From contig CP045477.1 in the NCBI GenBank assembly GCA_009392915.1, forward strand, positions 672,001 through 736,000: a stretch of 64,000 bases of DNA, read 5' to 3'. Positions 3,763 to 5,796 of this stretch are shown piece by piece. Each line of letters opens with the position of its first letter. Position 1 is the stretch's first letter. Both the position numbers and the translations under genes were made by a program. The notes beneath the pieces were generated by a model. It worked only from the letters and a program-made list of their open reading frames with translations. It was not told the origin of the DNA and did no database searches. The DNA is from Candidatus Forterrea multitransposorum CG_2015-17_Forterrea_25_41 (GTDB lineage: Archaea > Iainarchaeota > Iainarchaeia > Iainarchaeales > CSSED10-239).

Positions 3763-5796
3763 ATGAACTATATTGAACTTGCAAGTAAAATTGAAGAAAG
3801 AAAAGCTATTGTTCCTGGACATAGAACTTGTCCTGGGTGTCCTATAGCCATTATCTTAAGAACAGCATATGCTGCAACTGATAAAAAAATAATAACATCA
3901 TCTGCTACATCCTGTGCAGAAGTTACAACAACAATTTATCCTTACACCTCATGGAATGAACCTTGGATTCATTCTGTTTTTGCAAATGCTGCAGCAACCA
4001 TATCTGGTGTTGAAACTGCTTATAGAGCTTTAAAGAAAAAAGGAAAGATAAAAGAAGAAATTAAATTTATGGCTTTTGCTGGAGATGGTGGAGCTTTTGA
4101 TATTGGACTTCAGAGCCTTTCAGGAGCTCTTGAAAGAGGACATGATTTTGTTTTTGTTTGTTACGATAACGAAGGTTACCAAAACTGTTTATCAATAGAT
4201 TCATTAATAATGACAGAAACAGGTCTTAAAAAAATAACTGAAATTAAAAAAGGAGAGAAAGTCTGGGCTTTTGATCAAAATAAACATTTGCCGGTACTAA
4301 AAGAATGTACAGGGGTCTTTAATAATGGAAGAAAAAGAGTATACGAAATAGAAACTATACATCAAAATATAAAAGCAACATCAAACCACCCATTCTTAAC
4401 TTTAAAAAGAAACGGTAGAGGAAAAGAAAACGAGCTTATCTGGAAAACAGTTTCTCAATTAAAGGTAAATGATGAAATTGTAACTATGAGAAAACTTTAT
4501 GATAAAGGAAAAGCATATGAATTTAATAAAATAAAGCTAACTAAAAAAGGCGATTATAAAGTAAATATTATTAATGATGTTAAGCTTCCAGAAAAATCTA
4601 CAAAAGAATTAATGTTATGGCTAGGTTTATATGTTGGAGATGGATGGATTAGAGAAGAAAGAGGAGAAATTGGATTTGCTCTTCCAGAAAATACAGAAGA
4701 GAGAAAAATACTTCTTAAGATCCATAAGAAAATATTTGGACAAGAAAATAAATCTAAAGATAAATATTACATATACTATAATTCTGTAAATATTTCAAAA
4801 TTTATTAATTCCTTAGGGTTTATGCAAGGTGCTAAAAATAAAACAATACCATCTTGGGTTTTTACTTTACCAATAGATCAAAAAGAAGAATTTGTAAAAG
4901 GTTTATTAATGTCTGATGGATATATTTATAAAAAGAAAAAAGATAGTTGTAGATATTTATCAGCAAGCAAAGAATTAATTAAAAGATTAAGACTTTTACT
5001 TCAAACAATGGATTACAGAGTAGGAAAAATAACTATTCAGAAAAAACCAAAAGGAACTTTTGTAGTTTATAGAGAAATGTTAAATGATGGAGAATACTAT
5101 AGTATTTGTTTTAGTAAAAAAGACAAATGGGATGTTAAAAAATACCCTAACCAATACAAATATCAAAATTATTTTATTGAAAATGAATATTTTGAAACAA
5201 GAAAAATAAAAAATATTATTCCTAGAGGAATTGAACAAACATTAGATTTAAGAGTTGATGGAGAACACAACTTTATTGCAGATGGAATTGTTGTTCATAA
5301 CACAGGAGCACAACGATCCTCTGCAACACCTTATGGAGCTTCAACAACTACCACTCCTGGAGAGAAAAAAGAATTTCAAAAAGATCTTGCAAGGATAGCT
5401 ATTGCTCATAAAATACCATATGTTGCAACTGCAAACCCAGGAAATCTTTTAGACATGCATGAAAAGTTTAGAAAGGCTTTTGAAAAGAAAGGGCCAGCTG
5501 TAATCATTGTTTATGCAGCATGCCCTACAAACATGAAGGCTCCTGAAGACTTAACTATTGATATTTCAAAGCTTGCAACTGAAACTAATTTTTGGCCACT
5601 TTATGAAGTTGAAGATGGAAAATATAAAGTAAACTATAAGCCTGCAAATAAAAAACCTATTGAAGAATTTTTAAAAATGCAAACTAAGTTTAAAGAAGTT
5701 TTAAAAGATAAAAATGAAATTAAAAAAATACAACAAGAAATAGATGATGATTTTAAAGAACTTCTAAAAATGGAAGAAGCTTTTCCTTTAAAATAA
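3763..5796 (+). CDS. porB: Pyruvate:ferredoxin oxidoreductase beta subunit (TPP-binding), interrupted by an in-frame intein.
   Basis: N-terminal 'CPGCP', then '[12 protein letters not shown]' and 'YDNEGYQN|C...HN|TGAQ'. The extein motif reconstitutes as DNEGYQNTGAQ, the TPP-binding loop. 677 aa against about 300 aa for a normal PorB. Confidence 0.85.
   Translation: [677 protein letters not shown]
4186..5301 (+). mobile_element. Intein with a LAGLIDADG homing endonuclease domain inside porB (372 aa).
   Basis: Begins '[13 protein letters not shown]' (block A) with a block B 'TSNHPF'. Two LAGLIDADG-like motifs, '[10 protein letters not shown]' and '[10 protein letters not shown]'. Ends '...GIVVHN' followed by extein Thr (HN|T). 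Confidence 0.8.

Follow-up and report, generated by a model that had tools for sequence, protein, structure and literature searches.

A predicted class-1 intein with a LAGLIDADG homing endonuclease in the PorB protein of Candidatus Forterrea multitransposorum, at an insertion site occupied in both Bacteria and Archaea

Our study examined a stretch of 64,000 nucleotides of Candidatus Forterrea multitransposorum CG_2015-17_Forterrea_25_41 (contig CP045477.1, positions 672,001 to 736,000 of the forward strand), referred to here as the window, which carries an operon for a four-subunit 2-oxoacid:ferredoxin oxidoreductase. The subunit genes porG, porD and porA are all intact and are followed by porB (Table 1), the reading frame of which extends for 2,031 nt without interruption in a genome of 26 % GC and encodes a precursor in which an insert separates two parts of the enzyme subunit, the N-extein and the C-extein. 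We hold with high confidence that this insert is a canonical splicing intein with a LAGLIDADG endonuclease. An earlier, sequence-only reading had placed an insert at residues 142–513 of a PorB protein of 677 aa, beginning with Cys and ending in His-Asn before a Thr, and translation agreed with these boundaries to the base, with His-Asn at residues 512–513 and Thr at residue 514. Deletion of residues 142–513 leaves a protein of 305 aa.

Table 1. Positions of the porB precursor, its intein and the other genes of the por operon, numbered from the first letter of the window
Feature	Position (nt)	Strand	Basis
porB precursor ORF, 677 aa + stop (N-extein, intein, C-extein)	3763-5796	+	translation, Pfam
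N-extein, 141 aa, with C23, C26, C51 and the GDG...N Mg/TPP motif	3763-4185	+	
G107-D108-G109 of the TPP/Mg-binding motif	4081-4089	+	alignment; GDG role PMC5020499
YDNEGYQN, end of the TPP loop, including N136 and N141	4162-4185	+	alignment
N141, -1 residue	4183-4185	+	
Intein, 372 aa, 1,116 bp, precursor residues 142-513	4186-5301	+	sequence, profiles, fold
Splicing block A, Cys1 = first nucleophile	4186-4215	+	family alignment
Cys142 codon (intein residue 1, in CLSIDS)	4186-4188	+	
Intein Cys41	4306-4308	+	
Splicing block B, KATSNHPFL, T65-x-x-H68	4372-4398	+	family alignment
Approximate homing-endonuclease insert, intein residues about 105-315	4498-5130	+	part deleted in same-site mini-inteins
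LAGLIDADG motif 1, intein residues 142-154, LGLYVGD152GW, catalytic Asp152	4609-4647	+	
LAGLIDADG motif 2, intein residues 236-246, GLLMSD244GY, catalytic Asp244	4891-4923	+	family alignment, Pfam
Intein Cys308	5107-5109	+	
Splicing blocks F and G: Asp354, penultimate His371, terminal Asn372	5239-5301	+	
C-extein, 164 aa + stop, fourth Fe-S ligand Cys587 (AACPT)	5302-5796	+	alignment
+1 residue Thr514	5302-5304	+	
porG/C	1141-1695	+	operon partner
porD	1712-1999	+	operon partner
HD-domain ORF	1996-2577	+	in por operon
porA	2590-3750	+	operon partner

The nature of the insert was indicated by profile matches, by conserved residues and by its predicted structure, and the profile scores set chance aside. 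The Pfam family Intein_splicing matched precursor residues 149–513 (E 4e-15, 56 bits, cut-off 35.8) and LAGLIDADG_3 matched residues 373–446 (E 2e-8, 35 bits, cut-off 22.5), while TPP_enzyme_C was broken into two stretches on the precursor. On the isolated insert, the NCBIfam models intein_Nterm and intein_Cterm both scored above their cut-offs (25.4 bits for intein_Cterm, cut-off 15.6). The stretches that are conserved among 46 full-size homologues correspond to the intein blocks, namely CL (block A), ATxNHPFL (B), LGxxxGDGW (C), GLxLSDGY (E), TLDLRV..EHNF.A (F) and G.VVHN (G). An 18-sequence alignment contained 74 invariant columns, including C1, T65, H68, D152, D244, D354, H371 and N372, and all of these are intact in the window copy, which is full length. 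Cys1 was found in 18/18 of the aligned sequences and is at least 90 % conserved among the 46. Both LAGLIDADG motifs that had been read from the sequence are present, and their catalytic Asp residues are invariant in the family; two non-catalytic cysteines, Cys41 and Cys308, for which no part in splicing or cleavage is known, are likewise invariant across the aligned PorB inteins. An AlphaFold2 model of the intein, built from the 18-sequence alignment, reached a predicted local distance difference test score (pLDDT) of 90.4 and a predicted template modelling score (pTM) of 0.89, with helices and strands alternating over residues 140–311, the endonuclease region. Foldseek searches of the PDB with this model returned full-length matches to TliVMA (template modelling score, TM, 0.74), PhoVMA, PI-PkoII, PI-SceI and PI-PfuI at the top, and mini-inteins and hedgehog Hint domains lower down, with intein, Hint and hedgehog entries at a probability of 1.00. 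In the predicted structure a Hint fold is present and an endonuclease fold is inserted between its halves. Sequence blocks, profile matches and predicted fold agree with the canonical intein that the sequence-only reading had proposed, and together they supply every sequence- and fold-level feature that is expected of a class-1 intein with a double-motif LAGLIDADG endonuclease.

It is barely credible that these 372 residues are instead a lineage-specific PorB domain, an insertion sequence (IS) or a group I or II intron with a LAGLIDADG ORF. Such ORFs do occur in introns too, and the insert is AT-rich, as is the rest of the genome. However, the insert keeps the reading frame, and its endonuclease is surrounded by Hint blocks A, B, F and G. 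An intron was also rejected because an Rfam scan of all 64 kb returned zero families at the gathering score; no intron, tRNA, rRNA or riboswitch was detected by that scan. A transposon or IS was rejected because neither terminal repeats nor a target duplication were found at 4186 or 5301, where AT-rich chance matches alone were seen. A conserved or lineage-specific domain, which would have refuted the sequence-only reading, was rejected because the closest PorB homologues, of 303–307 aa, have no such region, and it is therefore an insertion.

The spliced extein scored best against the NCBIfam model for PorB (NF008819, 344.3 bits), followed by that for VorB (NF008818, 309 bits). Because both scores fall under the equivalog cut-offs (405 bits for PorB), the profiles safely place the host among the beta subunits of POR/VOR-type 2-oxoacid:ferredoxin oxidoreductases, with pyruvate as the likeliest, though unproven, substrate. 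The name PorB in the sequence-only reading was thus the best-scoring one, but VorB is close behind it, and the description of the enzyme as essential in that reading is an assumption. The window's porG, porD and porA best match the PorC, PorD and PorA families of NCBIfam. Over nearly its full length, the spliced extein aligned with the solved beta subunits of a pyruvate:ferredoxin oxidoreductase (PFOR; 9bt4_C, E 1.5e-69) and of oxalate oxidoreductase (5c4i_C, E 1.3e-70). In both alignments the junction was ungapped (cydnegyqntgaqrs against cvdneaymntgiqrs), and excision joins YDNEGYQN to TGAQRS in just the way that had been expected from the sequence.

Equivalences to the PFOR of D. africanus (DaPFOR) were taken from alignments to 1b0p, with 7plm for numbering. 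C23, C26 and C51 of the N-extein correspond to the Fe-S ligands Cys812, Cys815 and Cys840, and C587 of the C-extein corresponds to the ligand Cys1071; D108, in the GDG motif that binds Mg and thiamine pyrophosphate (TPP), corresponds to Asp963, and N136, at a Mg-ligand position, to Thr991. We take these roles in DaPFOR to be established knowledge. The residue that precedes the intein, N141, corresponds to Asn996 of the substrate pocket. In DaPFOR this Asn lines the pyruvate pocket and rotates when substrate binds, and its equivalent in the S. tokodaii 2-oxoacid:ferredoxin oxidoreductase influences substrate specificity (PMC5020499). The sequence-only reading had held that excision restores the TPP-binding motif; the insertion does lie in the TPP loop, but the GDG-X26-N motif (G107-D108-G109 ... 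N136) is entirely within the N-extein, and the junction follows it by 5 residues, in the conserved continuation Y-x-N/T-G-x-Q of the loop (a slash marks a splice junction here and below). With the intein in place, this motif is parted from the remainder of the TPP loop, and three of the Fe-S cysteines are parted from the fourth. Because both cofactor sites are split in this way, the unspliced precursor should be inactive, and the enzyme should gain function only once splicing has taken place.

A dead PorB, in which an insert that does not splice sits in a pseudogene left open by chance, would suit the reductive genomes of DPANN type. We nevertheless find this very improbable, since the frame has stayed unbroken in a genome where stops arise easily, the splicing residues are all intact, the exteins are 86–89 % identical to intact homologues, and porG, porD and porA are themselves intact.

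A second, unrelated intein was seen in another PorB, a partial protein from a Nanoarchaeota metagenome-assembled genome (MAG; protein P0112), where it occupies residues 109–446. It follows immediately on the GDGG of that protein's Mg/TPP motif (FAGDGG/CYSEDT...ISLNGN/SYDIG), ends in Gly-Asn, not His-Asn, and is followed by Ser at the +1 position; the site of the intein studied here is 34 residues further downstream. Because of this second element, PorB has at least two intein insertion sites, one on each side of the TPP motif.

Empty sites were found in related genomes, as the sequence-only reading had suggested looking for. The closest PorB homologues of the spliced extein (89, 87, 87 and 86 % identity) are all intein-less, and at two loci, L002 and L005, the DNA is 82–84 % identical to the extein-coding DNA of the window and collinear straight across the insertion point. 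A third locus, L007 (76 % identical), is fully syntenic with the window, with porG-porD-porA-porB, acs on the other strand and then top6A and top6B, and encodes a PorB of 305 aa with an empty site. This allele (P0125, L007 3453–4370) reads YQN-TNHQKSS, where other alleles read YQN-TGAQ(R/K)SS, so that the two residues right after the insertion point are altered although the loop is elsewhere highly conserved, and this might be a site that resists homing. In a neighbour-joining tree of exteins, the window allele was placed beside the intein-less P0121 (89 %), and the sole closely related intein-bearing allele, that of L001, beside the intein-less P0127 (95 %). The inteins of the window and of L001 are nevertheless each other's closest relatives among the matches listed (65 %), and both have a 3-residue insertion after LAGLIDADG motif 2. 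Because these sister inteins sit in alleles that each stand beside intein-less neighbours, the pattern can be accounted for only if related sources invaded independently or if precise losses occurred more than once.

When the intein by itself was used as query, 187 proteins were found, and site analysis of the best 120 of these 187 found the intein at the same site (...N/C...HN/TG...) of a TPP/PorB protein in 120/120. In all, more than 120 protein clusters hold the same-site intein. When GTDB was scanned with a single genome for each species, the same-site intein occurred in about 37 species, with a best match to the window intein of 62 %. As deposited, the labels of the bacterial hosts are Parcubacteria, Omnitrophota, Vermiphilus (Dependentiae), Cloacimonadota, ‘Clostridia’ and ‘Planctomycetia’, and those of the archaeal hosts are Aenigmatarchaeota, Woesearchaeota/Nanoarchaeia, Iainarchaeota, Micrarchaeota, Hadarchaeales and Heimdallarchaeota. 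The bacterial context was confirmed on an Omnitrophota contig (L169), where DnaX and RecR lie directly upstream of porG-porD-porA-porB(intein). Same-site inteins measure 365–372, 349–351, 325, 302, 270–280, 192–224 and 153–177 aa, and the mini-inteins among them are without about residues 105–315; judged from these sequences, the series represents a stepwise loss of the endonuclease down to mini-inteins. A viral vector was considered and rejected, as IMG/VR viral contigs hold no close relative: their closest match is 29 % identical, and the matches resemble other intein families.

Intein and extein identities were compared across 27 loci. Values were higher for the intein than for the extein in archaeon–bacterium pairs (58.3 % against 50.0 %), archaeon–archaeon pairs (57.7 % against 50.9 %) and bacterium–bacterium pairs (64.7 % against 56.1 %), and the two identities were weakly correlated (Spearman 0.18). 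An unconstrained passenger that is inherited vertically should diverge more than its host, and because the reverse was seen, these values point to transfer. Ratios of non-synonymous to synonymous substitution (dN/dS, Nei–Gojobori) in the endonuclease region were 0.07–0.17 for pairs with unsaturated synonymous sites, as low as in the splicing region, showing purifying selection on the endonuclease across the PorB intein family. Together, intein likeness and purifying selection fit ongoing cross-domain homing. The DNA that flanks the intein is conserved across hosts at first and second codon positions, reading tatgAtAAtGAaGCtTAtATGAAt before and ACnGGaaTnCAgcG after the insertion point, and such a flank is the kind of target that would be expected for an endonuclease moving between distant genomes.

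The closest inteins outside PorB are those of SufB, at 25–33 % identity over the full 372 aa. These SufB inteins were seen at three sites (...GNLG/S, ...AQYE/S and ...WSGG/S) in Chloroflexota, Actinomycetota, candidate phyla radiation (CPR) and DPANN genomes (loci L039–L088, e.g. L041 3001–4119, L039 3001–4155 and L062 3001–4188).

Several observations weigh against an active, mobile intein in the window. Splicing and DNA cleavage are both deduced from conserved residues and from the behaviour of the family. The window copy deviates from the family consensus at about 8 positions where conservation is 90 % or more (G95N, L242M, L265I, H283T, L298M, G304Y/Y305S, L330F). Its flank reads GGT TAC CAA AAC before and ACA GGA GCA after the insertion point, against a consensus of GCt TAt ATG AAt and ACn GGa aTn. 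Several of the MAG taxon labels are as deposited, L169 being the one locus for which the bacterial context was checked. Most of the deviating positions are common to the window intein and its sister in L001, and for this reason they may be lineage-specific or mildly deleterious. An intact homing endonuclease had been proposed from the sequence, and the full length of the window copy, its two catalytic Asp residues and the purifying selection in its family are consistent with this. Because of the substitutions at highly conserved positions, we are less certain of the nuclease than of the intein as a whole, and consider that it is probably still active.

The substitutions would also suit an intein that still splices but has a dead endonuclease, a relic on its way to becoming a mini-intein and now inherited by vertical descent alone in this lineage. 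Every stage of endonuclease loss is seen at the same site (349, 325, 302, 270–280, 192–224 and 153–177 aa), and since the GC content of the insert (25.8 %) equals the genome average (25.7 %), it has not recently arrived from a host of other composition. However, both LAGLIDADG Asp residues and all 74 invariant columns are retained at full length, dN/dS between the endonucleases of the window and L001 is about 0.2, and the existence of intein-less sisters at 89 % identity suggests a recent gain or loss. We therefore consider such a relic unlikely.

For an intein that splices and homes, the steps can be proposed as follows, as we infer them from the intein family. The 677-aa precursor would be translated, and Cys142 would attack the carbonyl of Asn141, giving an N–S acyl shift at the Asn141–Cys142 bond. 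The acyl group of the thioester would then be handed to the hydroxyl of Thr514, Asn513 would cyclize with the assistance of His512, and an O–N shift would release the 372-aa intein and leave the 305-aa PorB joined by a normal Asn–Thr peptide bond. The freed intein would act as a site-specific endonuclease, cutting intein-less porB at about 20–40 bp around the insertion point (consensus tatgAtAAtGAaGCtTAtATGAAt followed by ACnGGaaTnCAgcG), and repair from the occupied allele would copy the intein into the cut gene. Because the target encodes an almost invariant catalytic loop, the element could land in very distant hosts. Cross-domain spread, presence and absence among close relatives, and decay to mini-inteins make up the classical homing cycle.

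The position of the intein raises a further possibility, namely that it was co-opted as a conditional redox or stress switch that delays maturation of an oxygen-sensitive PFOR. Such a switch could act through Cys41 or Cys308 with Cys1, or by sensing a cofactor or partner subunit, and would gate assembly of the TPP/Fe-S active site. An insertion point within the active-site loop of an Fe-S/TPP enzyme that is labile to oxygen, the invariance of the two non-catalytic cysteines and the persistence of mini-inteins at the site after endonuclease loss are in its favour. So is the fact that the nearest relatives outside PorB are SufB inteins, given that the M. tuberculosis SufB intein was reported to be an oxidative-stress sensor (Topilina 2015, as cited in PMC4760082). 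However, the +1 Thr makes the Cys1–Cys+1 disulfide trap known from other inteins impossible, any homing element would be expected to insert in conserved motifs, and the intein is dispensable because the closest relatives do without it. We regard both the switch and this means of gating as doubtful, and as somewhat less likely than an inactive nuclease. If true, a switch would explain why many lineages that have lost the endonuclease keep the splicing domain in the form of a mini-intein, and why one family is kept across ultra-small Bacteria (CPR, Omnitrophota and Dependentiae) and DPANN Archaea.

The intein also affects how these genes are annotated. Among the best 120 database representatives, 34 are N-terminally truncated gene calls, 26 of which start at a Met two residues before the intein (‘MNC...’) and 8 at Met9 of the intein, and these carry the name ‘LAGLIDADG family homing endonuclease’ or ‘hypothetical protein’. 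Truly split PorB genes that start with Met-Asn-Cys were considered and rejected: in every locus examined (7/7: L001, L012, L018, L026, L032, L037 and L169), the 141-codon N-extein is open in frame upstream yet uncalled (for example L001 2899–3315 and L169 9559–10000), which marks the short calls as gene-calling artefacts. Where intein-bearing porB is called in this truncated and misnamed form, the metabolic reconstruction of a DPANN, CPR or Omnitrophota genome can count PFOR as absent or broken. In IMG, some entries are labelled ‘pyruvate/2-oxoacid:ferredoxin oxidoreductase beta subunit/intein/homing endonuclease’. The NCBIfam models that allow for an intein cover GyrA, Tes and RtcB, with none for PorB.

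The hosts of inteins show a strong bias towards proteins of replication and repair. The PorB intein represents a clear and widespread allele in a non-replicative host, a redox enzyme of central metabolism, where it adjoins a substrate-pocket residue. Understanding of how inteins work is unchanged by it. This intein family serves as a marker of DNA exchange between episymbiont-type lineages of Bacteria and Archaea, and the natural series from full-size intein to mini-intein, with a +1 Thr, could serve protein engineering.

Elsewhere in the window, an intein-family profile matched the porB ORF alone, and the large ORFs, including MCM, were free of inteins. Topo VI, MCM and an archaeal S-layer protein are also encoded in the window, against the DnaX and RecR beside the operon in L169. 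The ORF between porD and porA resembles an HD_3/YfbR-like phosphohydrolase, and its start overlaps the porD stop. Variable extra ORFs lie between the subunit genes in the por operons of relatives, that of L007 having none; one family of 248–273 aa without a Pfam match (33–38 % mutual identity) occurs there at varying positions, together with other unknown ORFs (L001 2061–2882; L002 402–1148; L005 797–1588, 1595–2173 and 3336–4064). At 57657–62867 on the minus strand, a 1,737-aa ORF with 11 CHB_HEX_C_1/Fn3_assoc repeats, Ig_7 domains and a C-terminal glycine-rich domain probably encodes a giant surface or adhesion protein. At 12844–14985 on the plus strand, an ORF of 714 aa encodes a module of glutamine amidotransferase and asparagine synthase fused to a diphthamide synthase domain (Diphthami_syn_2); its syntenic counterpart in L007, of 473 aa, has the diphthamide synthase part and Asn_synthase.

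An intein in PorB, PFOR or pyruvate synthase went unmentioned in full-text searches of the literature, supplements not included, and in the text of the main survey of prokaryotic inteins (Novikova 2016), and the same-site PorB intein has apparently never been described in a paper. The best structural matches of the predicted model are the archaeal VMA inteins (TliVMA, 7qsu/7qss; PhoVMA, 7qst) and PI-SceI (1vde), with TM scores of 0.74–0.52 at a Foldseek probability of 1.00. These are likewise class-1 inteins with Cys1 and a terminal His-Asn, in which a Hint domain is interrupted by a double-motif LAGLIDADG endonuclease. However, sequence identity to them is 13–19 %, their host is the catalytic subunit of the V/A-ATPase rather than PorB, and PI-SceI differs further in its +1 Cys and in an additional region for DNA recognition. 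Among solved structures, PI-PkoII (Thermococcus kodakarensis Pol intein-2, 2cw7) gave the best sequence match to the endonuclease half, with both LAGLIDADG helices and their surroundings aligned, although the match is confined to the endonuclease region (E 4e-8) of a 537-aa intein with additional domains in DNA polymerase B. The splicing halves were best matched in sequence by the Ssp DnaB mini-intein (1mi8, 6frg), which aligned over blocks A/B (query 5–100) and F/G (query 341–371), including TxxH and HNF-A-D/N-x-I-V-V-H, with ATANHRFL in block B against ATSNHPFL in the window intein. In contrast to the intein studied here, it is engineered, has no endonuclease, resides in the DnaB helicase and has a +1 Ser. 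The SufB inteins (M. tuberculosis SufB/Pps1 family) are also class-1 with a LAGLIDADG endonuclease in an Fe-S-related, non-replicative host, but occupy another protein at three other sites, with a +1 Ser in the loci examined against the +1 Thr of PorB. The same-site PorB inteins (e.g. P0001/L001, P0003, L009, L011 and L018) are true orthologues at the same point with the same blocks (46–65 % identity), although none is near-identical to the window intein, the best of the matches listed being 65 %. In summary, set beside these systems, the PorB element is a textbook intein at an unusual and unpublished host site, with a wide distribution across both domains.

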